DNA of 64,000 bases from Escherichia phage vB_EcoM_G9062 (NC_054920.1), one strand, 5' to 3'; numbered from the stretch's first letter, positions 7,612-50,496 are shown. The notes: generated by a model from the letters alone, not told the origin. Translations and numbers: made by a program.

Positions 7612-9177
7612 ATGACTATCAAAACTAAAGCTGAACTTTTGAACAAATGGAAGCCATTACTGGAAGGTGAAGGTTTACCGGAAATTGCTAATAGCAAACA
7701 AGCGATTATCGCTAAAATCTTTGAAAACCAGGAAAAAGATTTCCAGACAGCTCCGGAATATAAAGACGAAAAAATTGCTCAGGCATTCGGTTCTTTCTTA
7801 ACAGAAGCTGAAATCGGTGGTGACCACGGTTACAATGCTACCAACATCGCCGCAGGTCAGACTTCTGGCGCAGTAACTCAGATTGGCCCAGCTGTTATGG
7901 GTATGGTACGTCGTGCTATTCCTAACCTGATTGCTTTCGATATTTGTGGTGTTCAGCCAATGAACAGCCCGACTGGCCAGGTATTCGCGCTGCGCGCAGT
8001 ATATGGTAAAGATCCAATCGCTTCCGGCGCTAAAGAAGCATTCCACCCAATGTATGGTCCAGATGCAATGTTCTCTGGTCAGGGTGCTGCTAAGAAATTC
8101 GCTGCTTTGAAAGCAAGTGATACTCTTGAAGTCGGAACTATTTACACTCACTTCTTCCAGGAAACTGGTACAGTATATCTGCAAGCTACAGCAGCTAAAC
8201 AAATTGATTCAGGCGCATCTGACGCAGACAAATTAGATGCTGAAATTAAGAAACAAATGGAAGCTGGTGTACTGGTAGAAATCGCTGAAGGTATGGCTAC
8301 TTCTATCGCTGAACTTCAGGAAGGTTTCAACGGTTCTACCGATAACCCATGGAATGAAATGGGCTTCCGTATCGATAAACAAGTTATCGAAGCTAAATCT
8401 CGTCAGCTGAAAGCTGCTTACTCTATTGAATTAGCACAAGACCTTCGCGCTGTTCACGGTATGGATGCTGATGCTGAACTGTCTGGTATTCTGGCTACCG
8501 AAATTATGCTGGAAATCAACCGCGAAGTTGTTGATTGGATTAACTACTCCGCTCAGGTTGGTAAATCTGGTATGACCCTGACTCCGGGTTCTAAAGCTGG
8601 TGTATTTGACTTCCAGGACCCAATCGATATTCGTGGTGCTCGCTGGGCAGGTGAATCCTTTAAAGCTCTGTTGTTCCAGATTGACAAAGAAGCAGTTGAA
8701 ATTGCTCGTCAGACTGGTCGCGGCGAAGGTAACTTCATTATCGCTTCCCGTAACGTAGTTAACGTTCTGGCTTCAGTTGATACCGGCATTTCTTATGCTG
8801 CACAAGGTCTGGCTACTGGCTTTAACACTGATACTACCAAGTCAGTATTTGCTGGTGTTCTGGGTGGTAAATACCGTGTATATATCGACCAGTATGCTAA
8901 ACAGGATTATTTCACCGTAGGTTATAAAGGTCCGAACGAAATGGATGCTGGTATTTACTATGCTCCATATGTAGCTCTGACTCCGCTGCGTGGTTCTGAT
9001 CCGAAGAACTTCCAACCGGTAATGGGATTCAAAACTCGTTACGGTATCGGTATCAACCCATTTGCAGAATCCGCTGCTCAGGCTCCGGCTTCTCGCATCC
9101 AGAGCGGTATGCCTTCTATTCTGAATAGCCTTGGTAAAAACGCTTACTTCCGCCGTGTATATGTTAAAGGTATCTAA
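7612..9177 (+). CDS. 23: major capsid protein gp23
   Basis: 521 aa, near-identical to T4 gp23 as recalled (MTIKTKAELLNKWKPLLEGEG...). Confidence 0.97.
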   Translation: MTIKTKAELLNKWKPLLEGEGLPEIANSKQAIIAKIFENQEKDFQTAPEYKDEKIAQAFGSFLTEAEIGGDHGYNATNIAAGQTSGAVTQIGPAVMGMVRRAIPNLIAFDICGVQPMNSPTGQVFALRAVYGKDPIASGAKEAFHPMYGPDAMFSGQGAAKKFAALKASDTLEVGTIYTHFFQETGTVYLQATAAKQIDSGASDADKLDAEIKKQMEAGVLVEIAEGMATSIAELQEGFNGSTDNPWNEMGFRIDKQVIEAKSRQLKAAYSIELAQDLRAVHGMDADAELSGILATEIMLEINREVVDWINYSAQVGKSGMTLTPGSKAGVFDFQDPIDIRGARWAGESFKALLFQIDKEAVEIARQTGRGEGNFIIASRNVVNVLASVDTGISYAAQGLATGFNTDTTKSVFAGVLGGKYRVYIDQYAKQDYFTVGYKGPNEMDAGIYYAPYVALTPLRGSDPKNFQPVMGFKTRYGIGINPFAESAAQAPASRIQSGMPSILNSLGKNAYFRRVYVKGI

Positions 9178-9260: not shown

Positions 9261-10544
9261 ATGGCTAAAATCAACGAACTTCTGCGCGAATCAACCACAA
9301 CGAATAGCAACTCAATCGGTCGCCCAAATCTCGTTGCTTTGACTCGCGCTACCACTAAATTAATATATTCTGACATTGTAGCAACGCAAAGAACTAATCA
9401 ACCTGTTGCTGCTTTTTATGGTATCAAATACCTTAACCCGGATAACGAATTTACATTTAAAACTGGTGCTACTTACGCCGGAGAAGCTGGATATGTAGAC
9501 CGAGAACAAATCACAGAATTAACAGAAGAGTCTAAATTAACTCTCAATAAGGGCGATTTATTCAAATATAATAATATCGTTTATAAAGTATTAGAAGATA
9601 CACCATTTGCTGATATTGAAGAAAGCGATTTAGAATTAGCTCTTCAGATTGCAATTGTTCTTTTAAAGGTTCGTCTATTTTCTGACGCAGCGTCAACAAG
9701 CAAATTTGAAAGCTCTGATAGTGAAATTGCGGATGCTAGATTCCAGATTAATAAATGGCAAACCGCAGTTAAATCTCGTAAACTTAAAACTGGTATCACA
9801 GTTGAATTAGCACAAGATTTAGAAGCAAATGGATTCGATGCTCCTAATTTCTTGGAAGATTTGCTTGCAACTGAAATGGCAGATGAAATCAATAAAGATA
9901 TTCTGCAGTCTTTGATTACAGTGTCAAAACGCTATAAAGTTACAGGAATTACTGATACTGGATTCATCGATTTGAGTTATGCATCTGCACCTGAAGCTGG
10001 TCGTTCATTATACCGAATGGTATGTGAAATGGTTTCGCATATCCAAAAAGAATCAACTTATACAGCAACGTTCTGTGTTGCTTCAGCTCGTGCTGCTGCG
10101 ATTCTTGCTGCATCAGGTTGGTTAAAACATAAACCAGAAGATGATAAATATCTTTCACAAAATGCCTATGGGTTCTTAGCTAATGGTTTACCGCTTTATT
10201 GCGATACTAACAGCCCATTAGATTATGTAATCGTTGGTGTAGTAGAAAATATCGGTGAAAAAGAAATTGTTGGATCAATTTTCTATGCTCCGTATACAGA
10301 AGGTCTTGACTTAGATGACCCTGAACATGTAGGTGCATTTAAAGTTGTAGTTGACCCAGAAAGTTTGCAGCCATCTATCGGTTTATTAGTTAGATATGCT
10401 TTATCAGCAAATCCTTACACTGTAGCAAAAGATGAAAAAGAAGCAAGAATAATTGATGGTGGAGACATGGATAAAATGGCGGGTCGTTCAGATTTGTCTG
10501 TTTTATTAGGTGTTAAGCTACCAAAAATTATCGTTGATGAATAA
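9261..10544 (+). CDS. 24: capsid vertex protein gp24
   Basis: 427 aa, gp23 paralog, matches T4 gp24. It follows gene 23 directly with no segD-like ORF between. Confidence 0.95.
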   Translation: MAKINELLRESTTTNSNSIGRPNLVALTRATTKLIYSDIVATQRTNQPVAAFYGIKYLNPDNEFTFKTGATYAGEAGYVDREQITELTEESKLTLNKGDLFKYNNIVYKVLEDTPFADIEESDLELALQIAIVLLKVRLFSDAASTSKFESSDSEIADARFQINKWQTAVKSRKLKTGITVELAQDLEANGFDAPNFLEDLLATEMADEINKDILQSLITVSKRYKVTGITDTGFIDLSYASAPEAGRSLYRMVCEMVSHIQKESTYTATFCVASARAAAILAASGWLKHKPEDDKYLSQNAYGFLANGLPLYCDTNSPLDYVIVGVVENIGEKEIVGSIFYAPYTEGLDLDDPEHVGAFKVVVDPESLQPSIGLLVRYALSANPYTVAKDEKEARIIDGGDMDKMAGRSDLSVLLGVKLPKIIVDE

Positions 10545-12157: not shown

Positions 12158-13576
12158 TTATGGATAGGTATAGATGATACCAGTTTCTAAAGCAGTTTTA
12201 TGAATGATGTATCCATTACGCGATTCTTGAACATCAACTTCTGGATAGTCTTTCATCATCTTCTGAAGAGTGTAACGATGTAGGTAATATTTACTATCTG
12301 GGTCGTCAGTTTTCCAATCTTTACCTTCTTCGGTCATTTTTTGGATTTCATCCATAACCCACCAACCGCACCAGATATAAGCTGAAGTACGATGTGGAAG
12401 AGGATGAACATAAGGTAGTTCACCTTCTGGTTCTGGAGCAACTTTATCAGTTACCTGAACTTGACCTTCTGCTGTAATAGTTTTGCTATCGTAATCAGTT
12501 GCAGTAACGACAGCAGTAACTTCAATAGTTTGACTTCCAACAGATGAGGTATCGACAGTATATACGTTAGTTGACCCTTCTACAGGAGAAGAATCTTTCT
12601 TCCATGAGTAAGTAATTTGTGCTTCTTCTGGAGCACCCGTAACATTAGCCGTAAATGTAGCCGAAGCATCTTGCTGAACATTAATAGAAGGAGGAGTCAA
12701 TGTAACCTGTGGATTCATTGTCTTCTTATTAACTGTCAATGATACTTCATTAGAAGTAACTTCCTTTTCATTGTAATTTTCAGCAGTTACTTGGGCTACG
12801 CATTTAATTCTTTTTACTCCACTTGTAGTTGGAGTATAGCTAAATGTAGAGTTAGTTTCTCCACCAACTTGTGAATCATCTACATACCACTGATACGTAG
12901 CAGACGCTCCATCAGGTTGAGAAGCTAAGGCAGCAGTAAATTGAACTGGGGTTCCGATTACTCCCGCTGGAGGACTATCAGGAGTTACTGCCAAAGTAGT
13001 TGTCTGCGTCTTTTTATTAACAGTTAGTGACACTTCATTGGAAGTAACTTCCTTTGTATCATAATCTGTCGCGGTTACTTGAGCTACGCACTTAATTGTT
13101 TTAACTCCGCTTGCGTCAGGAGTGTAATTGAATGTAGTGCTAGTTGCTTCGCCCACAGGAGAACCGTCAACGTACCATTGATACGTAGCGTTTGCACCTG
13201 ATGGCTGTGAAGCTAAGGCAGCGGTAAATTCAATTGGAGTTCCAATCACTCCAGCATCAGGGCTACCAGGAGTTACTGCCAAAGTAGTTGTTTGTGTCTT
13301 ATTTTGAACTGTGATAGTTGTACTAATTTCAGCTGTTTCAGGTTCAGATTCTGCAACTTGATTGGTTGCAACTACTTTAATAGTCTTTTGACCGGCAGGT
13401 CCTTTTAGTACATAACTAAAAGTTGCTGACGTTTCTTCCTGTGGAGCGTCGTCTACAGTCCAAGCATATGTAATAGTTCCGCCTCCAGTTTCACCACTGG
13501 GTGTAGCAGTAAACTGCTTAGTTTCATCAATAACCCCTGTCGGTGTTTTAGGAGTTATATCAACTGTAAAAGTCAT
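12158..13576 (-). CDS. hoc: highly immunogenic outer capsid protein Hoc, with four Ig-like domains
   Basis: 472 aa; N-terminal Ig-like domains and C-terminal capsid-binding region as in T4 Hoc (376 aa as recalled); two adjacent ~96-aa domains are ~80% identical. Confidence 0.85.
   Translation of the reverse strand: MTFTVDITPKTPTGVIDETKQFTATPSGETGGGTITYAWTVDDAPQEETSATFSYVLKGPAGQKTIKVVATNQVAESEPETAEISTTITVQNKTQTTTLAVTPGSPDAGVIGTPIEFTAALASQPSGANATYQWYVDGSPVGEATSTTFNYTPDASGVKTIKCVAQVTATDYDTKEVTSNEVSLTVNKKTQTTTLAVTPDSPPAGVIGTPVQFTAALASQPDGASATYQWYVDDSQVGGETNSTFSYTPTTSGVKRIKCVAQVTAENYNEKEVTSNEVSLTVNKKTMNPQVTLTPPSINVQQDASATFTANVTGAPEEAQITYSWKKDSSPVEGSTNVYTVDTSSVGSQTIEVTAVVTATDYDSKTITAEGQVQVTDKVAPEPEGELPYVHPLPHRTSAYIWCGWWVMDEIQKMTEEGKDWKTDDPDSKYYLHRYTLQKMMKDYPEVDVQESRNGYIIHKTALETGIIYTYP
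12722..13009 (-). repeat. Hoc Ig-domain tandem repeat, copy B (residues ~190-285)
   Basis: TQTTTLAVTPDSPPAGVIGTP...EVSLTVNKK, about 80% aa identity to copy A. Confidence 0.8.
13010..13300 (-). repeat. Hoc Ig-domain tandem repeat, copy A (residues ~93-189)
   Basis: KTQTTTLAVTPGSPDAGVIGTP...EVSLTVNKK, repeated directly downstream. Confidence 0.8.
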
Positions 13577-24355: not shown

Positions 24356-24359
24356 CAAT

Positions 24360-24377
24360 GGGGACCGAAAGGTCCCC
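24360..24377. terminator. bidirectional terminator GGGGACC-gaaa-GGTCCCC
   Basis: Perfect 7-bp GC stem with GAAA loop between convergent gene 54 and the minus-strand ORF 24383..24673. Confidence 0.7.
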
Positions 24378-24382
24378 ATATT

Positions 24383-24673
24383 TTATTTACGGAATGAAAT
24401 AAAAGCAGCAACTGAAGCAACAGAGGTTTCTTCAATATAAACCTCAATTTTTACCGGAGCTTCTGACTCAAATTTACCTGTTACTACACCTTGGAAAATA
24501 CTTTCAGTCTGTTCTGGCTTTGAAAAATTTTCAGAAGGAAAAATTCCGAACTTTTTATCTGTTCCAAAAATTTTGATAAATTCATCATAAACTGCTTCAT
24601 TAAAAGCGTTATTCCTGCTGATAACGCCTTCAACTACAAGTTCTTGACCTAAAAAGCGTAAAGAAGATTTCAT
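24383..24673 (-). CDS. hypothetical protein
   Basis: 96-aa ORF with ATG and RBS GAGGA; driven by the duplicated early promoter. Confidence 0.65.
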   Translation of the reverse strand: MKSSLRFLGQELVVEGVISRNNAFNEAVYDEFIKIFGTDKKFGIFPSENFSKPEQTESIFQGVVTGKFESEAPVKIEVYIEETSVASVAAFISFRK

Positions 24674-24680
24674 TTTGTGT

Positions 24681-24734
24681 TCCTCATGTTATGTCAGTAA
24701 GACTACTATAACACAACACGAGGGACTTGTAAAC
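24681..24734 (-). repeat. 54-bp perfect direct repeat, copy A (early promoter plus leader)
   Basis: Identical to 40544..40597 over 54/54 nt. Confidence 0.95.
24705..24734 (-). promoter_or_regulatory. T4-type early promoter (GTTTAC-N18-TGnTATAGT), copy A of a 54-bp repeat
   Basis: Minus strand GTTTACaagtccctcgtgttgtgtTATAGT followed by a leader with GAGGA RBS. Confidence 0.6.
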
Positions 24735-26791
24735 TACATTTTGAACTTTTTAGACATTCCGTTGATGTTAACCAAAGAAGCTAAGATTTGAGAAACTTCG
24801 CTTTCCTCTTCTTTTGATTCTTCTACAAGGAATTGATTAAATCCAGCCATTGGACGAACTTCACCAGTTTCCATTAGATGGTCGCCATCATATACTGATT
24901 CTTCTAATTGTTCAGAAGGAGGAACGATTGTACCTTCGATTAGATACTTGTTATAAGCAGTTTCTTTCATAAAGTAAGTACTTACTTTATTAATCTTCAG
25001 TAAAATTCCACGTGGTAGAATAACTTCAGCTTCTGACGGAAATCCTGATAAATGACCCGGAACGATAACTTTGATTCGCTCAGCTCCTTTAATTACCATA
25101 CCCACGCTAGTTTCAGCATCTTCATTAGCATATGTAGAATGACTACCCATATGCATCAAATCTTCTGCATCAACGGAACCTTCTCCTTCACCAGAAAATA
25201 CTGCGCCGGAATCATCTAGAGCCATATAGTTTTTACCATGCTCACCGAAGATATTTGGTTTAAGCGATGTGGATACGAAGTTCTTGAAATAGAACATTTT
25301 ATTTTCAATGTTATGACGCAAAGTTTTAAAGGTAACTTCTTGTCCACGGTAAAGTGTAGTTCCTGGAGGAAGAACTGAACCTTTAGCGAATGCAGAATCA
25401 AGCGTCTCAATATGTTTAATAGCTCGTTCCATATATTCTTCACGGGTAGAATCTGGTTTACCCAAAAGGAACGAGTTCATTTCAACATATGAATCTGCAC
25501 AATAATCTTCAATTACATCAGATTCAGCTTGAGTTAATCCTTTTGGAGTTACTTCAGTGCTTGCGTATTCATATGCCTGAGCAGCAGATTCATTAATCAA
25601 TTTATAAATGCCATTCATGACAAATTGAATAATAGCTGTCTTTTCATCTGGCGTAGCTTTAGAACCTTTAACCAAATCATTGATAATTTTCTTAATAACA
25701 TCAAAGCTATTAGAAATATTAATATCAGCAAGATCGCTTAAAATTTTATCAGTCTTATAATCAAAGAATTCTTTATTCTTTAAATATTCTTGAGAACCTT
25801 GATATGTTATATCGCTCTGTAACTTGATAGATGGATCACGTAAACGTGCATGGGCTAATGCAATATGATTTCGGAAGCTTTCGAGTTCATAATCACTAGA
25901 TTTAAAACGAGAAGCGCTTCTCATACCGCCTATAGCTCCTTTGCTGAAGTTTGAACCAATTTGAATAACGCCAGAGTTCATTGGTCCTTCTGCTTTATAC
26001 ACCGGAACTTTAGATTCAAACTCTTGATATTTCTTAGCAGCGAAGCTATCACCCTGAAGTGAAGCATCAACAGTAGAATATTGAGCTTGTGCTGCTAATC
26101 GACGACTAATTTTAGTTTTTTGAATAACAGCTTGATCCGTGCGCTTATCATTTTCTAAAGCAATAGAAGCAGCAACAGCGACAGCTTTAGGAACAGCATT
26201 ACCTGTTTTAACATCTACATAAACATCACCGACCTTCGATTCAACTTTTGTGAATAACTCAGTTGAAATAGGAGGTACACCTGGAATGTCTTCTAAATTG
26301 GCATTTTTACGGTAAACCATAATATATGCATACTTTTTATCATAGTCCCAGATTTCCTTTAAAAGAACATATCGACCTGCTCCTTTAGTACGTACTAAAC
26401 GGTCAGCAATAACTTGCATTTGACGAGCAGCGCCATTTGTTTTACTCTTTAGTACGCGGAATAAGCATGCATCAATTTTATACTGTTTCATTGTTTGAAG
26501 AGCAGTATCAAAAACAGCGTTAATGACGCCAATTGGATTTCCACCCAAGTTTCTAAGTTTAACCAGTGATAATTTCTCGTTGACACCTATCATTACGATA
26601 TGCATCATTTTATCGCCCGGCTTAACGTTTTTATTTGTATCACCTCCAGAGGTGTATGTACAAAATCTAAATCCAGGAAGCACGCTTTCTTCGCCGGCTT
26701 GAATAGCAAAAATTTGAGGTATTTTATGCTTAGGATTTAAGTTAACAACCGGCGCCGAAGCGCCGTCAAATAATTCTGTAATAAGTTCCAT
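24734..26791 (-). CDS. Alt-like ADP-ribosyltransferase paralog (second copy)
   Basis: 685 aa; N-terminal ~230 aa closely similar to the adjacent Alt; catalytic R-S-E motifs present (LYRGQ, FVSTSL, EAEVILPRG); central region divergent. Confidence 0.85.
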   Translation of the reverse strand: MELITELFDGASAPVVNLNPKHKIPQIFAIQAGEESVLPGFRFCTYTSGGDTNKNVKPGDKMMHIVMIGVNEKLSLVKLRNLGGNPIGVINAVFDTALQTMKQYKIDACLFRVLKSKTNGAARQMQVIADRLVRTKGAGRYVLLKEIWDYDKKYAYIMVYRKNANLEDIPGVPPISTELFTKVESKVGDVYVDVKTGNAVPKAVAVAASIALENDKRTDQAVIQKTKISRRLAAQAQYSTVDASLQGDSFAAKKYQEFESKVPVYKAEGPMNSGVIQIGSNFSKGAIGGMRSASRFKSSDYELESFRNHIALAHARLRDPSIKLQSDITYQGSQEYLKNKEFFDYKTDKILSDLADINISNSFDVIKKIINDLVKGSKATPDEKTAIIQFVMNGIYKLINESAAQAYEYASTEVTPKGLTQAESDVIEDYCADSYVEMNSFLLGKPDSTREEYMERAIKHIETLDSAFAKGSVLPPGTTLYRGQEVTFKTLRHNIENKMFYFKNFVSTSLKPNIFGEHGKNYMALDDSGAVFSGEGEGSVDAEDLMHMGSHSTYANEDAETSVGMVIKGAERIKVIVPGHLSGFPSEAEVILPRGILLKINKVSTYFMKETAYNKYLIEGTIVPPSEQLEESVYDGDHLMETGEVRPMAGFNQFLVEESKEEESEVSQILASLVNINGMSKKFKM

Positions 26792-26794
26792 GAT

Positions 26795-28846
26795 TTATCC
26801 TTGAACGAACTTGTAAGGCATGTTTGCAATATCTATGCAAGACGCAATAATTCCAAGAGATGATTCTACTTTCTGTTTAACATTTGATGAAACAAATGAT
26901 GCAAAGTCAACTCTATCTTCTATATCACCTGTCATTGTAACCAATTCACCAGTTTCCATTAAATGGTCTCCGTCATAGATTACCGATTCGGTGAGTTCTT
27001 CTGTGGTCATAACTTCAGCTTGAATAAGCTTGTTGTTAGTTTTAACTGTTCCATCATTGTAAGATGCATCGGTTATTTTATTAACTTTGACCATTAATCC
27101 ACGTGGCAAAATGACTTCCATTTCATTTGAAGGTGCTAAACTTCCACCGGGTAAAACAACATTGACCTTATCAGCCCCAGTAATAACCCATCCAATTCCA
27201 ACTAAATTATCGCTAGAATTTACTAGTCCTTCATCAGTTTTATCAATAGAAACACTTAGACGCTTTTCGTCTGGTAAAACACCTACAGATGAATCAGTCA
27301 TCCAAGTACCAAAAATATTTGGATATAATGATGTTGACACAAAGTTTCTAAAATAAAAAACTCGATTTTTTACCATTGCTTCATATATTGAAGGTAACAT
27401 TCGTTGTGAACGATACAAAGTAATACCTTTTGGTAATCGTTCACCATTTTTAAAGGCTGAATCTAAATTATCAATAGCTTTTTCTATGTCAGATGCTGTC
27501 AAAATACTTGTACGCTCATCTGGATTATATAATCCCAAAAGAGCATTATTTATATCTACATATCCTGAACCTACGTATTCACGAATTCCGCGTTTTTGCG
27601 CCGGTGTGTATTTAGATGAATCTTTATTTTCGACTATAGGATGTAATGACCATCCAGCTGTAAGAGCATATCCACGTAATTCTCTTCGAATAATCTTTGT
27701 TTTTATTGCATTCCAAGAATTTTGTACTAACTCATTTGCAGCATCTTGGTTTAAATGCGAATGTTTGTTAATATTTCTTTCAAACCAAGCACCTTTATAT
27801 TTTTCTAAAGTATCATCGACGATAGAAGCAATAGTTTCTAAAGTTTTTATTGAAGTAATAGATTCTTTTCGTAATCTTTCTAAAGCTTTATTTTTTATTT
27901 CTGTATTAACATCAGATTCTTTATCTTCAGGAATTATAGAAGCTTCTCTGAATGCCATTCCAGCTGTAACACTATTAAGAGCATTCTCTAATGCAAATCC
28001 TGAAGTAGAAATAACAGTTAATTCGTTAGCATCGGAAATTAAAGGCGCATCAGCGGGTTTATTTAATTCTGCTGCTGAAGCCTCAAATTTTTGAAACATC
28101 GGTGTTTCAAATCTAGAAGATTCCAATGATTGACTTTGCGCAATTGCTCTACGGGAAATTTTAACTTTAACGATTACAGCTTGGTCAGAACGTTTATCAT
28201 TTTCTTGTGCAATAGATGCTGCAATTGCCTCATTTTTAGTTACTTGAGCTCCAGTATCTTTATTGATATAAACATCACCGACCTTCGATTCAACTTTAGT
28301 AAAGAGCTCGGTACTAATTTCTGGAACTCCTGGAATGTCTTCTAGTGATACATTTTTGCGATGTATAAGAATATATGCATACTTTTTATCATAATCCCAG
28401 AGTTCCTTAAGAAGGACGTATCTGCCGCCTGAACGACTACGGATAAGTCTATCAGCAATAACTTGAATTTGTCGAGCTTGACCAGCGGTTTTAGACTTAA
28501 GAATACGGAGCATACAAGCATCAATTTTATATTGACGCATTGTTTGCATTGCAACAGTAAAAACTGAATTGATATAATTAATTGGGCTTGGCCCAAGACC
28601 TTTCAATTTAGCAATTGAACCTTTAGCGGTTAATGTAAAAGGAACAATATGCATCATTTTATCGCCCATTTTTAAATCGCGATTAGTATCACCTCCAGAT
28701 GTATAGGTACATAAACGAAAGCCTGGCTGTTCAATTGCATCATCAACGTGAACTGAAAAAATTTGCGGTATTTTCTTCTTTGGATTTAAGTTTGTAATCG
28801 GAAGAGTAGTATCTTCGTCAAATAATTCTGTAATGAGTTCCATCAT
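26795..28846 (-). CDS. alt: Alt ADP-ribosyltransferase (capsid-packaged, injected)
   Basis: 683 aa, matches T4 Alt as recalled; R-S-E motifs (LYRSQ, FVSTSL, EMEVILPRG). Confidence 0.92.
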   Translation of the reverse strand: MMELITELFDEDTTLPITNLNPKKKIPQIFSVHVDDAIEQPGFRLCTYTSGGDTNRDLKMGDKMMHIVPFTLTAKGSIAKLKGLGPSPINYINSVFTVAMQTMRQYKIDACMLRILKSKTAGQARQIQVIADRLIRSRSGGRYVLLKELWDYDKKYAYILIHRKNVSLEDIPGVPEISTELFTKVESKVGDVYINKDTGAQVTKNEAIAASIAQENDKRSDQAVIVKVKISRRAIAQSQSLESSRFETPMFQKFEASAAELNKPADAPLISDANELTVISTSGFALENALNSVTAGMAFREASIIPEDKESDVNTEIKNKALERLRKESITSIKTLETIASIVDDTLEKYKGAWFERNINKHSHLNQDAANELVQNSWNAIKTKIIRRELRGYALTAGWSLHPIVENKDSSKYTPAQKRGIREYVGSGYVDINNALLGLYNPDERTSILTASDIEKAIDNLDSAFKNGERLPKGITLYRSQRMLPSIYEAMVKNRVFYFRNFVSTSLYPNIFGTWMTDSSVGVLPDEKRLSVSIDKTDEGLVNSSDNLVGIGWVITGADKVNVVLPGGSLAPSNEMEVILPRGLMVKVNKITDASYNDGTVKTNNKLIQAEVMTTEELTESVIYDGDHLMETGELVTMTGDIEDRVDFASFVSSNVKQKVESSLGIIASCIDIANMPYKFVQG

Positions 28847-32849: not shown

Positions 32850-33215
32850 TTAAATATCAAATTCGTTAAGAACTACATCAAAGATTGCTTCAAGATGCTC
32901 AGGTTTAGCTCTGTTACTCAGAATATGACGAATCCAAGTTTTAACCAGAAGCTTGCGATTAACGCCATTCCAGCAAGGATGAGTCCCTAAATCGCGTTGA
33001 CGAAAATCATCATCCAAAGCGATTTTAAAAGAAGAACCTTCCATTGTGATTGAAACCGTGATGCCATTTTCAAATCGCATATAAACGTAGTTAGGAGTCA
33101 TATATTGTTCAATTTCGCATACTGATCCATTTTGATGTTTCCAAAGGCAAATAGTATCAATAGAACATGCAATACCATTAGAAAAATATTTACGTTCAAA
33201 GTTGATGTAGTTCAT
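32850..33215 (-). CDS. hypothetical protein
   Basis: 121-aa ORF, ATG start. Confidence 0.6.
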   Translation of the reverse strand: MNYINFERKYFSNGIACSIDTICLWKHQNGSVCEIEQYMTPNYVYMRFENGITVSITMEGSSFKIALDDDFRQRDLGTHPCWNGVNRKLLVKTWIRHILSNRAKPEHLEAIFDVVLNEFDI

Positions 33216-33285
33216 TTTTATTCTCCGAGATGTTTAATTGCGGTACAGGTATATAATATCATATCCTGTACCAAAGTAAACTATT

Positions 33286-33654
33286 TTATGCAACTTTAAT
33301 CCAATTATCTAAATTTAATTCACCTTTGGCTTTCATTTTTTCAATCAAGAGGTCAGCGGTAATACGACCATTTTGATACCACGTAACATCTTCAGAGTAA
33401 CCAGTTTCTTTATCTTCATAAGTCTCACAGCGAATTTTACCAAGAATCAAAGTTTTTAATTCGTATGTATCTCCAGTAAAAAAGTTAGTTAACATTATTT
33501 TCCAAGAGAAATCATCAGAAGGACCTTCAGGAGTCATACAATCTACAAATTCAAATTGTTCTTTATATAAATGCCACTGAAGTTCTTTAGTTTCGATAGC
33601 TTTATAGCCGTCGTGATCTTTACCTTTGATGTATGAGTTAAGATTGATTTTCAT
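33286..33654 (-). CDS. hypothetical protein
   Basis: 122-aa ORF, ATG start. Confidence 0.6.
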   Translation of the reverse strand: MKINLNSYIKGKDHDGYKAIETKELQWHLYKEQFEFVDCMTPEGPSDDFSWKIMLTNFFTGDTYELKTLILGKIRCETYEDKETGYSEDVTWYQNGRITADLLIEKMKAKGELNLDNWIKVA

Positions 33655-33740
33655 TTTATTCTCCTTTGTTTGTGTAAAATAATACTATCACAAAGGAACC
33701 ATACTGTAAACAACTTTGTGCAATCTTTGGAAAATAAAAA

Positions 33741-36713: not shown

Positions 36714-37234
36714 GTTGATCCTAGCTCCTTACTTTCAACATTTTTAACTAATTTGACAGAAACTAATTCAGCATCTTGGGTAATCATTACCGGACCTTCT
36801 TCATGCTCTTCAAGATATTCTAGAGCTTTCTTTTTAGCTTCTTCCTTCGTATCAGTTTGAGCATAGATATAGAACATACAACCAGTAATACCTACTACTT
36901 TCCACTTAATTTCTTTATCAGTTTTAATTTCAAATTTACTTACAGAATCATCTTTTTGAACTTCTTCGAAAAAAGAATATTCTAACATATAAGCAATTGA
37001 AAATAACGGGCTAACTTTATAGGATTCACCCATTACATCAACAGCTTTATACCAACAATCATCAATTTCACGTTTAATGCTAATAACATTTTTCGCAGGA
37101 TCTATTTTTACTTTAAATGAATTTTCCCCAATAAACTGGGCAATTCGTTTATTGGCCCCGCAAGTTTCATTAAAAATATCTTTATATCCAGCTTTAAAGC
37201 GATAAACCTTATCTTCTTCAAACCATTCGCTCAT
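36707..37234 (-). CDS. hypothetical protein (cd.3-like)
   Basis: 175-aa ORF. Confidence 0.6.
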   Translation of the reverse strand: MSEWFEEDKVYRFKAGYKDIFNETCGANKRIAQFIGENSFKVKIDPAKNVISIKREIDDCWYKAVDVMGESYKVSPLFSIAYMLEYSFFEEVQKDDSVSKFEIKTDKEIKWKVVGITGCMFYIYAQTDTKEEAKKKALEYLEEHEEGPVMITQDAELVSVKLVKNVESKELGSTC

Positions 37235-37296
37235 TTCAATTTCCTCATTTGTTTTGGTAGAGCTATAATATCACAACTCTACCGTAAAGTAAACCA

Positions 37297-39692: not shown

Positions 39693-40042
39693 TTAGAAAG
39701 GTCCTGGATGTCTTCTGCGAACTTGTTGAAGGAGTTGTTGATTTGTTTTTCAACCAATCCTGGCTTATGAGCCACCACATCCGCCTTCTTTGCGTCTTTG
39801 CGCAGTTTTTCATTTTCACGCTCAATAGCAGCAATTGCCTCACGATTTTTATTATTCATCGCATCAATATAATTATACTGAATTCGCAAATTATTTAATG
39901 CTAAGGCGTTTTCATTGGCTGTTTTTGTAATTTCAGTAACTGATGTTTCTAATCTTTCTACCTTATTTTTTAAAATAATAGATGTTCCGCCAAATGCTAT
40001 TACAAGTAATAGCAATCCAGCTGTAAAATTACTTACATGCAT
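39689..40042 (-). CDS. i-spanin (inner-membrane, Rz-like; T4 pseT.3 equivalent)
   Basis: 117 aa; N-terminal transmembrane segment (LLLLVIAFGGTSIIL) followed by predicted coiled coil. Confidence 0.75.
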   Translation of the reverse strand: MHVSNFTAGLLLLVIAFGGTSIILKNKVERLETSVTEITKTANENALALNNLRIQYNYIDAMNNKNREAIAAIERENEKLRKDAKKADVVAHKPGLVEKQINNSFNKFAEDIQDLSK

Positions 40043-40539
40043 AAAGTTTTAATAACCTCTATAATATCGTCTTGAGAAAGACCGTTAATTAAAATATGAT
40101 GTTCAGCTGGAGATTTAGAAATTTTAAAGCATGCCTCAACATCTTCTGCCATATCCGATGCACTACGATTTGGATTACTAATTCCAAGACGATGCTTTCC
40201 AGTCAAAGGATTAACGATGATATAGCATTTACAACTATTGATATGAACATTAGGTTGAGTCTGATTAATAAATACATCACAATCATATTTCGCAAGCTGA
40301 TTTTCTAAAAAGACTTTCATCTCTTCAACCGCATCAGGAAGCATATCACGGGCTTGCTCAAGACGACGATTTCGATATTCTTTAATGGTCGTTTTCCGCT
40401 TGACTTGCTTAGCTAAATCTTTCTTAAGATCGGTGATATATCCAACTCGACGGTTTCCTTTAAATACAGAAATCCCATCTGTAGTATCACCGTATGCTTC
40501 AACGACCATTTCAGTAGTAATAAGCTGCAAATCCATCAT
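40033..40539 (-). CDS. alc: Alc, inhibitor of host transcription
   Basis: 168 aa, length and position (between rnlA and pseT) as T4 Alc. Confidence 0.85.
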   Translation of the reverse strand: MMDLQLITTEMVVEAYGDTTDGISVFKGNRRVGYITDLKKDLAKQVKRKTTIKEYRNRRLEQARDMLPDAVEEMKVFLENQLAKYDCDVFINQTQPNVHINSCKCYIIVNPLTGKHRLGISNPNRSASDMAEDVEACFKISKSPAEHHILINGLSQDDIIEVIKTLCM

Positions 40540-40543
40540 AAAG

Positions 40544-40597
40544 TCCTCATGTTATGTCAGTAAGACTACTATAACACAACACGAGGGACTTGTAAAC
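40544..40597 (-). repeat. 54-bp perfect direct repeat, copy B
   Basis: Identical to 24681..24734. Confidence 0.95.
40568..40597 (-). promoter_or_regulatory. T4-type early promoter upstream of alc, copy B of the 54-bp repeat
   Basis: Same GTTTAC-N18-TGnTATAGT element and leader as at 24705..24734. Confidence 0.6.
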
Positions 40598-40600
40598 AGC

Positions 40601-42188
<1,588 letters not shown>

Positions 42189-49653: not shown

Positions 49654-49722
49654 TTAGCAAGCTTTAATCAAAAGATATAAACAGACCAACATAACTGCTG
49701 CCATAATATAAGGTGCGAACAT
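49654..49722 (-). CDS. candidate small hydrophobic peptide (22 aa), not in the ORF track
   Basis: ATG preceded by GGAG RBS at 8-nt spacing; translation MFAPYIMAAVMLVCLYLLIKAC; early-promoter-like element directly upstream. Confidence 0.35.
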   Translation of the reverse strand: MFAPYIMAAVMLVCLYLLIKAC

Positions 49723-49752
49723 TTTCTTTTCTCCATTAGTTTTGATAGGGTA

Positions 49753-49782
49753 ATAGTATCACACTACTACCCTTTTGTAAAC
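49753..49782 (-). promoter_or_regulatory. T4-type early promoter candidate (GTTTAC-N18-TACTAT)
   Basis: Minus strand GTTTACaaaagggtagtagtgtgaTACTAT upstream of the small peptide ORF and the frd.3-like gene. Confidence 0.5.
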
Positions 49783-50192: not shown

Positions 50193-50423
50193 TTATTGTT
50201 CAATCAATCCCATGTAAAATTCTGCGTCTTCAGAATCCATACCATCACAATATTCATTAGCCATAAAGCGGGTGAGGTCTTCAAGAGGACCTTCAATGAC
50301 AATAGAAAAATTGCAATAATTGGGATCATCGTGAATACTTGTGATACTAAGTTCAGGATAACGATTACGAATAATTTCTTCGATATATTCAAAATCAACG
50401 ATGTCAATATCAACTTTAGCCAT
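50193..50423 (-). CDS. hypothetical acidic protein (76 aa)
   Basis: ATG at 50423 with strong RBS AGAGGA; track ORF extends 21 codons upstream into the promoter region. Confidence 0.6.
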
Positions 50424-50466
50424 ATTATTTTCCTCTTTAATTATCAGCAGTATTGCCGATAGTTGT

Positions 50467-50496
50467 ATAGTACCATGGAAGGACAAGGATGTAAAC
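50467..50496 (-). promoter_or_regulatory. T4-type early promoter candidate (GTTTAC-N18-TACTAT)
   Basis: Minus strand GTTTACatccttgtccttccatggTACTAT. Confidence 0.5.

Follow-up and report, generated by a model that had tools for sequence, protein, structure and literature searches.

An early promoter nested in a hairpin is repeated upstream of alc and alt.-3 in a T4-type phage and may gate the translation of read-through RNA

The genome of Escherichia phage vB_EcoM_G9062 (NC_054920.1) raises the question of why one and the same sequence of 54 nucleotides (nt) stands directly upstream of two separate genes, alc and a 96-amino-acid open reading frame (ORF), alt.-3. The window, that is the whole stretch of 64,000 nt that we analysed and from whose first letter all positions are counted, is that of a Tequatrovirus, and its top database match was 98.8% identical over the region of copy 1. 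Read in the sense of the minus strand, the repeated element is GTTTACAAGTCCCTCGTGTTGTGTTATAGTAGTCTTACTGACATAACATGAGGA, and it lies at positions 24681-24734 (copy 1, the alt.-3 copy) and 40544-40597 (copy 2, the alc copy) with 54 of 54 nucleotides identical. An earlier examination made without database searches, the sequence-only reading, had described a cassette present twice in direct orientation about 15.8 kb apart, and its coordinates and gene context proved correct; the start-to-start distance is 15,863 nt. Taken as a whole, the explanation that we favour, with somewhat better than even confidence, is that the element is an early promoter-hairpin cassette, that it is predicted to gate the translation of RNA reading through from upstream, and that the alc cassette replaced the promoter core of alt.-3. 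Features and their positions are collected in Table 1.

The identity of the two copies ends at both borders of the repeat, and the flanks are unrelated. At copy 1 the first base of the element, a G, doubles as the final base of the TAG stop codon of the upstream alt paralog, and at copy 2 the TAA stop codon of rnlA lies 3 nt upstream. Both copies end in the ribosome-binding sequence GAGGA, and an ATG follows 7 nt later, which is the start codon of alt.-3 at copy 1 and the T4-annotated start codon of alc (40534-40536) at copy 2; alc has a second in-frame ATG 3 nt upstream of the annotated one. When up to 3 mismatches were allowed the window contained only these two matches to the 54-mer, with none expected from 100 shuffles, and no third copy was found in the window even at up to 20 mismatches. 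A resemblance of two independent early promoters by chance or consensus could draw on the extended consensus regions that T4 early promoters have in common. The shuffles and the lack of any other window site within 20 mismatches speak against it, however, as does the observation that the other early-type promoters of the window share the -35 and -10 motifs only, and we regard this explanation as already refuted. A megablast search with the 54-mer returned 738 places in 447 phage records, with at most two per record among the matches listed. The 54-mer does not, as far as these matches and the two in the window go, stand upstream of many early genes, the finding that the sequence-only reading had named as fatal to its view. 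The repeat is not a new element, because the T4 reference sequence has contained it for decades.

Both copies score as promoters of the sigma-70/T4-early type, with TTTACA, a 17-nt spacer, TATAGT and a TG before the -10 box (10 of 12 matches). The earlier proposal of an early promoter and a GAGGA ribosome-binding site at both copies agrees with the promoter score and the ATG spacing. The motif is of the T4-early type as proposed, but its spacing is GTTTAC-N15-TGT-TATAGT and not N18 followed by TGnTATAGT; the distance from GTTTAC to TATAGT is 18 nt, which is equivalent to TTTACA-N17-TATAGT with a TGn extension. From the promoter geometry transcription is predicted to start at the A at nt 37, 7 nt past the -10 box, and a YTAC motif at the same distance from the -10 box recurs among related cassettes. 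Like the T4 early promoters, which are built of UP, -35, TGn and -10 elements (Hinton 2010, PMC2988021), the cassette has GTTTACA, a 17-nt spacer, an extended -10 element and early downstream genes. It differs from them in that the identity covers the whole spacer and 24 nt past the -10 box, far above what the consensus needs, and in that the AT-rich UP region lies outside the repeat. The sequence 5' of the -35 element differs between the copies and is coding in both, with CTAAAAAGTTCAAAATGTA at copy 1 and, at copy 2, an A/T-rich tract further upstream and then CCCAGAAGGATACTAAGCT. No promoter feature is annotated at either site in the T4 GenBank records NC_000866 and AF158101, and we found no mapped promoter of alc or alt.-3 and no T4 transcription-start map in the literature.

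As RNA, nt 12-53 of the cassette fold into an 18-bp hairpin, in which 14 bp and a further 4 bp are separated by a 2-nt bulge and closed by a GUCU loop. Within the 54-mer this hairpin had a folding energy of -22 kcal/mol and a z-score of -5.39, and none of 200 shuffles was as stable; in the native context the z-scores were -3.0 for copy 1 and -3.9 for copy 2. The spacer between -35 and -10 makes up the 5' arm together with the -10 box. At the end of the 3' arm stands GAGG from the Shine-Dalgarno sequence (SD), which in silico pairs at the base of the stem (nt 50-53 with CCUC at nt 12-15). With its predicted start in the 3' arm, the cassette's own transcript should be unable to fold in this way, and no significant structure was indeed obtained for RNAs from nt 37 onwards (z-scores of -0.15 and -0.84). 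It follows from this geometry, given the predicted start, that both arms would be present only in RNA entering from upstream. The suggestion of the sequence-only reading that selection acts on the leader RNA misses the main point, as only some 17 nt of the repeat belong to the cassette's own leader; what is constrained is the hairpin that straddles the promoter and that would form in read-through RNA. A search of the whole window against Rfam 15 gave no match at the gathering score. The hairpin resembles an intrinsic terminator in being a stable stem-loop at the end of the upstream gene, but the stem is not GC-rich, lacks a U-run and was not scored as terminator-like. The sequence 3' of the stem is ACUUUAUG at copy 2 and AACACAAA at copy 1, and because there is no T-run after the hairpin we dropped a terminator as the principal interpretation.

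The strand on which the inverted repeat acts can be approached through its G.U pairs. The sense strand of the T4-type stem contains three of them and folds with -23.9 kcal/mol, compared with -14.6 kcal/mol for the antisense strand. Stem substitutions numbered 9 among the Tequatrovirus copies; the pairing of the sense RNA is kept by 7 of them and that of the antisense RNA by 4. The changes that preserve sense pairing are C>U opposite G, A>G opposite U and G.U>A-U, and the sole recurrent change that breaks a sense pair, G29>A, makes the -10 box TATAAT. Together with the constant involvement of the SD these observations are suggestive, not conclusive, of the sense RNA as the relevant strand for the T4-type stem. 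The inverted repeat could instead act in DNA, as a cruciform, as the target of a structure-specific protein or as a modulator of promoter strength; covariation between the arms is equally compatible with DNA pairing, the fold energies of sense and antisense strands are similar across genera, and the 5' arm sits inside the promoter itself. We consider this very improbable. The three G.U pairs would be A.C mismatches on the other strand, 4 of the 5 substitutions that discriminate between strands keep sense pairing only, the 3' arm consistently ends at the SD, and the arm sequences vary between promoters, which makes a sequence-specific binding protein unlikely.

Conservation of the hairpin was followed upstream of alc, at loci that were gathered by similarity of the Alc protein and not by motif. 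At 31 of 42 Alc-encoding IMG/VR loci, in many genera, GTTTACA was present together with a hairpin that begins directly behind the -35 element and ends in the SD, and the same layout was seen in records of Gelderlandvirus, Karamvirus, Bragavirus, Dhakavirus, Kanagawavirus and Winklervirus and in a Klebsiella phage. The stem sequences vary, and the SD stands at nt 48-53, counted from the G of the -35 element, in 15 of 15 distinct lineages. The duplex energy of a lineage's own two arms was on average -20.5 kcal/mol and that of arms combined with those of other lineages -11.6 kcal/mol, with none of 20,000 permutations as low as the former. When the arm blocks were placed in register 86.6% of the cells were paired, compared with 64.5% after shuffling (0 of 500), and pairing was 44-52% when the partner was slid by 1-3 columns. 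Changes on both sides were found in 11 of the 14 stem pairs across lineages. A covariance model with seeds from Karamvirus, Gelderlandvirus, Kanagawavirus and Winklervirus found the cassettes as well; its alignment was not used for the counts because the T4-type stem, with its start at nt 12 and not at nt 8, was put into a wrong register, and because the model also gave matches on the reverse strand.

The distribution of the two copies bears on how alt.-3 came by its cassette. T4 holds both, the alc copy being identical to that of the window and the alt.-3 copy carrying a single difference, G40>A, by which a G.U pair becomes A-U. Orthologs of alt.-3 occur in Gaprivervirus, Dhakavirus, Marfavirus, Karamvirus, Kagamiyamavirus and phage NHEP10 with the order alt, alt.-3, gene 54 kept. 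In these six the gene is preceded by a spacer of about 58 nt with a GTTTACA promoter, a short hairpin within the spacer (ACACCACAAGGATGTGGT or similar) and a free SD; their leaders end in CATGAGGA followed by A or G, and none resembles the alc cassette of the same genome. The repeat of the window begins at GTTTACAA, in the -35 element, and ends at CATGAGGA, in the ribosome-binding site. As both motifs were already common to the ancestral alt.-3 promoter and the alc cassette, recombination at these microhomologies is indicated. Because the other genera differ at alt.-3 while the alc-type hairpin is conserved at alc, we read the hairpin layout as probably ancestral at alc and the Tequatrovirus alt.-3 core as a likely old replacement by the alc cassette. 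Promoter capture, as suggested by the sequence-only reading, therefore holds in the sense that one locus appears to have captured the cassette of the other, given the different alt.-3 cores in the six other genera, but the capture was not recent, since T4, Shfl2 and phage 132 all have both copies and the cassette, found in about 450 phage records, is genus-wide. The identity beyond the promoter consensus to which that reading had drawn attention is real and is best explained by such a cassette capture.

Gene conversion, which had been offered beside capture, found no support as an ongoing process. We compared the copies in 9 genomes that show variation and in which both copies could be read, namely T4, Shfl2, phage 132, three IMG/VR genome sets (one of them a contig pair from the same sample, the other two single contigs) and three metagenome-derived genomes. 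Every variant was private to one copy, and the window itself carries the consensus state at both loci. Concerted evolution of the copies would account for a 54/54 match between unrelated flanks, and T4 recombination is known to use short homologies. Yet no genome had the same derived base in both copies, and the loop change G32>A, seen at alt.-3 in six loci, was accompanied by a G in the alc copy of the same genome wherever that copy was readable (5 genomes). It is thus hardly probable that ongoing conversion, and not selection, keeps the copies identical. Purifying selection on the overlapping -35, TGn/-10, two stem arms and SD is the simpler explanation for their slow divergence.

These observations can be joined in the following model. 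The cassette would be a self-contained module in which a strong host sigma-70 early promoter is combined with an inverted repeat. RNA made from its own promoter would begin near nt 37, lack the 5' arm and have an open ribosome-binding site, which would permit translation at once after infection. RNA coming from upstream would carry the full cassette, and its 18-bp hairpin would bury the ribosome-binding site. The putative sources of this read-through are alt and its paralog for copy 1 and nrdB-denA-rnlA for copy 2, genes with middle or late RNA and late proteins. Later read-through RNA would yield no Alc or Alt.-3, and translation of each gene would be tied to its own early promoter. A Tequatrovirus ancestor would have swapped the alt.-3 promoter core for the alc cassette by way of the two shared end motifs, and the copies would since have been kept nearly identical by purifying selection and not by ongoing gene conversion. 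A terminator scan detected no terminator-like site between the upstream gene and the cassette at either copy, and in T4 the identified middle promoters P30, PnrdB and PI-TevIII are situated upstream and point in the direction of the read-through. In time-resolved transcriptome and proteome tables of T4, alc and alt.-3 are each listed with early RNA and early protein, alt and denA with middle RNA and late protein, rnlA with early RNA and late protein, and alt.-1/alt.-2 with middle RNA and no protein detected. The kinetic class in T4 changes exactly at both cassettes, which fits an active early promoter and an early-only protein output and is no proof of a translational block. We also considered translational coupling, whereby the stem would be opened by a ribosome that finishes translation of the upstream gene. 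The upstream stop codons lie 10-14 nt ahead of the first paired base, which is about the reach of a terminating ribosome.

Several observations weigh against this model. Three GTTTAC-type promoters on the minus strand of the window have strong straddling hairpins (z-scores of -3.9 to -4.8) in which the SD is free, and since such hairpins exist our confidence in translational gating is only moderate. The hairpin may have a general role that does not involve the ribosome-binding site, such as attenuation, processing or stabilisation of the 3' ends of upstream RNAs, to which SD masking would be an addition or an alternative. At alc itself, Tegunavirus and two other lineages have a promoter-straddling hairpin with a free SD, and NHEP10-like phages and loci L056-L058 have only a short spacer hairpin or none. 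Each sequence's own fold supplied the register for the pair counts, a choice that favours the structure, and an unguided MAFFT alignment with RNAalifold on 25 alc cassettes, in which the 3' arms were out of register, gave no consensus structure; the arm-swap energy test and the in-register counts replaced this alignment. The preferred strand is clear for the T4-type stem only. The sample of copy variation is small, with 9 genomes and 16 haplotypes, as IMG/VR holds about 5 Tequatrovirus contigs and the metagenome scan gave 11 real and 6 chance matches.

In a rival explanation the cassette would be only an attenuator and recombination linker of the promoter-early stem-loop (PeSL) type, whose stem-loop stops, pauses, processes or stabilises the 3' ends of upstream transcripts, whose conserved motifs are points of recombination and in which the pairing of the SD is incidental. 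One PeSL stem-loop described by Arbiol et al. (2010, PMC2839356) lowered the expression of a downstream lacZ like a strong terminator, and PeSLs have been extended to the T4/PST pair by Comeau et al. (2014, PMC4122927). Other early-type promoters of the window and the Tegunavirus alc promoter, with their straddling hairpins and free SD, point the same way, as do the junctions of the alt.-3 replacement, which lie exactly at the conserved -35 and SD motifs. However, no T-run follows the hairpin of the cassette, and it was not scored as terminator-like. In addition, the SD closes the 3' arm in 31 of the 42 alc loci and keeps a constant distance to the -35 element, an arrangement for which an attenuator has no need. 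We judge a role restricted to attenuation and linking rather unlikely, and attenuating and gating roles are compatible with each other.

A comparison with PeSL cassettes shows how far the likeness extends. In the description of Arbiol et al. (2010, PMC2839356) their stem is located between -35 and -10 or over the -10 box, and an SD and a start codon stand at the 3' end. As in the PeSLs of both papers (PMC2839356, PMC4122927), our cassette has, one after the other, the stop codon of the upstream gene, an early promoter of the sigma-70 type, a stem-loop, an SD and a start codon, and PeSLs are likewise repeated in the genome and tied to the exchange of promoter-gene modules by recombination at conserved motifs. 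The cassette thus combines an early promoter with a stable stem-loop, has an upstream stop codon and an SD with ATG, and occurs in two copies, one of which has apparently replaced the alt.-3 core. The differences are that the stems of RB49 and phi1 are typically G-tract/C-tract pairs and that in PST/T4 the stem-loop lies just upstream of the promoter (figure legend, PMC4122927), whereas in the cassette the stem extends from the spacer over the -10 box and +1 to the SD. PeSLs are found preferentially in hyperplastic regions beside variable ORFans. The cassette stands among the conserved genes alt, rnlA and alc, whose order is kept across genera, but the neighbourhood of alt is itself variable, since the window has a full paralog where T4 has the decayed alt.-1/alt.-2. 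We found no proposal of SD sequestration in the sections consulted of the two papers, where PeSLs are read as terminators or attenuators and as linkers.

In its predicted function the cassette is close to hairpins that sequester the ribosome-binding site and contain an internal promoter, which are known for T4 e, soc, 49 and I-TevI and also for I-TevII, I-TevIII, mobE and segB (Uzan and Miller 2010, PMC3014915). In this class the hairpin buries the SD in a long RNA, and a short RNA without the 5' arm, made from a promoter within that arm or just ahead of it, is translated; the hairpin layout of gene e is conserved among related phages (PMC3014915). The layout of the cassette is alike, with the SD paired in a stable helix in silico and a promoter whose own transcript lacks the 5' arm by geometry. 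The internal promoters of the known class are late (TATAAATA) and give late-only translation, whereas that of the cassette is an early sigma-70 promoter with the opposite logic. The cassette does not contain the late-promoter core TATAAATA and does not belong to the class in the strict sense, the review (PMC3014915) has no early-promoter case and does not list alc or alt.-3, and function has been demonstrated for e and I-TevI but is predicted only for the cassette. By analogy, the cassette may work like the e/soc/49/I-TevI class with an inverted temporal logic, in a structure that resembles a PeSL.

If the gating is true, the trick of placing a promoter in a hairpin would serve both directions, late-only as is known and early-only as proposed here, and it would provide a factor-independent confinement of Alc, the inhibitor of host transcription, to the first minutes of infection. 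A wider generalisation, according to which hairpin-nested early promoters are a self-insulating design of T4-type immediate-early genes that licenses only own-promoter transcripts for translation and possibly also decides on RNA fate, is a tentative idea to which we would give somewhat less than even weight. If it is true, the synthesis of Alc-type proteins would stop at early-promoter shut-off despite middle and late read-through RNA over the gene, and a cis-acting, factor-independent layer would be added to the incompletely understood shut-off of early proteins. The alt.-3 copy would offer a clean, datable case of a promoter-hairpin-SD module that moved between genes at its -35 and SD ends, and thereby an instance of the PeSL model of modular shuffling among conserved genes. 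Such cassettes could also serve phage engineering as compact parts, namely strong and self-insulated early expression units.

Table 1. Positions of the cassette elements, related hairpins and neighbouring features in the window
Feature	Position	Strand	Remark
Cassette copy 1 (alt.-3 copy), nt 1-54	24681..24734	-	nt n = coordinate 24735-n
Cassette copy 2 (alc copy), nt 1-54	40544..40597	-	nt n = coordinate 40598-n
-35 element GTTTACA	copy 2 40591..40597; copy 1 24728-24734	-	invariant in all related alc cassettes
Extended -10 element TGT-TATAGT, in hairpin 5' arm and bulge	copy 2 40568..40576; copy 1 24705-24713	-	
Predicted transcription start, nt 37 (A), 7 nt past -10 box, in 3' arm	copy 2 40561; copy 1 24698	-	promoter geometry
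Hairpin, nt 12-53	copy 2 40545..40586; copy 1 24682-24723	-	RNA fold
Shine-Dalgarno GAGGA, nt 50-54	copy 2 40544..40548; copy 1 24681-24685	-	
Straddling hairpin, SD free	49720-49782	-	z -3.9
Straddling hairpin, SD free	37232-37294	-	z -4.2
Straddling hairpin, SD free	33213-33281	-	z -4.8
alc-like spacer-SD pairing, UUCCUUUGUG with CAAACAAAGGAG	33652-33711	-	z -2.3
Weaker spacer-SD pairing, CCUU with AGAGG	50421-50496	-	z -2.05
alt.-3, 96 amino acids, DUF5498 (Pfam, 1e-59), function unknown	24383..24673	-	directly downstream of copy 1
alc, inhibitor of host transcription (Pfam ALC, 4e-92)	40033..40536	-	directly downstream of copy 2
Full-length alt paralog, Alt-like ADP-ribosyltransferase	24734..26791	-	adjoins copy 1 upstream
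alt, virion-packaged ADP-ribosyltransferase	26795..28846	-	later-class transcripts reading towards alt.-3
rnlA (gene 63, RNA ligase 1 and tail-fibre attachment)	40601..41725	-	upstream of copy 2
Late-promoter core TATAAATA, about 20 nt upstream of alt start codon	28867..28874	-	consensus match only
Perfect 9-bp GC-rich hairpin (ATGGGGACC...GGTCCCCAT), T-run on either strand	24358..24379	.	likely bidirectional terminator

Hairpins at other promoters take several forms. In the straddling hairpins with a free SD the spacer supplies the 5' arm, the 3' arm falls around +1 and the -10 box is inside or close to the loop; they would form in read-through RNA only. Two more early-type promoters, at 33652-33711 and more weakly at 50421-50496, have a spacer that pairs with the downstream SD as at alc. 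The covariance model built from the alc cassettes also matched positions 33665-33711, within the site that has the alc-like pairing of spacer and SD. A short hairpin wholly within the spacer (ACACCACAAGGATGTGGT, CACATGGATGTG or CCACATGGAATGTGG) is found at the alt.-3 promoters of the six genera (L067-L072), at the alc promoter of NHEP10-like phages (L013, L042) and at about 41745-41777 on the minus strand, in a MotA-box-like TGCTT...TACTAT site upstream of rnlA.

Some alc loci are arranged differently. Three Gaprivervirus loci (L029, L030, L059) and L011 have an additional small ORF between rnlA and alc, together with a strong intrinsic terminator made of GGGGTGTACAAGCCCC and a subsequent T-run; these loci have no GTTTAC promoter upstream of alc, and a short local hairpin of GGUUCCAUCA with UGAUGAGGACC still covers the alc SD. 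In alc cassettes of Karamvirus, Gelderlandvirus and Dhakavirus (L024, L026, L046) the masked SD has GGAG and an A-rich tract, the type of target of the RegB endoribonuclease; the T4-type cassette has GAGGA without GGAG. As RNA structure is protective against RegB, the choice of transcripts that this enzyme cuts could also depend on the hairpin.

The transcription unit that passes through copy 1 likely ends at the perfect GC-rich hairpin between the convergent genes alt.-3 and 54, which would act as a bidirectional terminator. Upstream of copy 1, the two full-length Alt-like genes in tandem account for the direct repeats D2, D8 and D11, which are spaced by about 2.05 kb. The downstream paralog has decayed in T4 into the short ORFs alt.-1 and alt.-2, and other genera have a single alt. 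The late-promoter core in front of alt fits a late synthesis of the virion-packaged Alt from the 'early' strand. On the side of copy 2, a TGCTT...TACTAT sequence just upstream of rnlA (41777) resembles a MotA box by consensus match only and is not in the set of 58 identified T4 middle promoters. The sequence-only reading had noted that the direct repeats could mediate a deletion. By annotation, the interval between the copies holds the genes for DNA ligase (gene 30), gene 31, cd and pseT. Genes 30 and 31 of T4 are essential, and a viable deletion between the copies is therefore unlikely.

Two further repeats were seen elsewhere in the window. A 288-nt unit is present in tandem at 12720-13295 on the plus strand, its two copies being 76% identical, and a 77-nt stretch occurs at 8365-8441 and again, 1.4 kb apart and 70% identical, at 9741-9817, where it may represent paralogous coding sequence.

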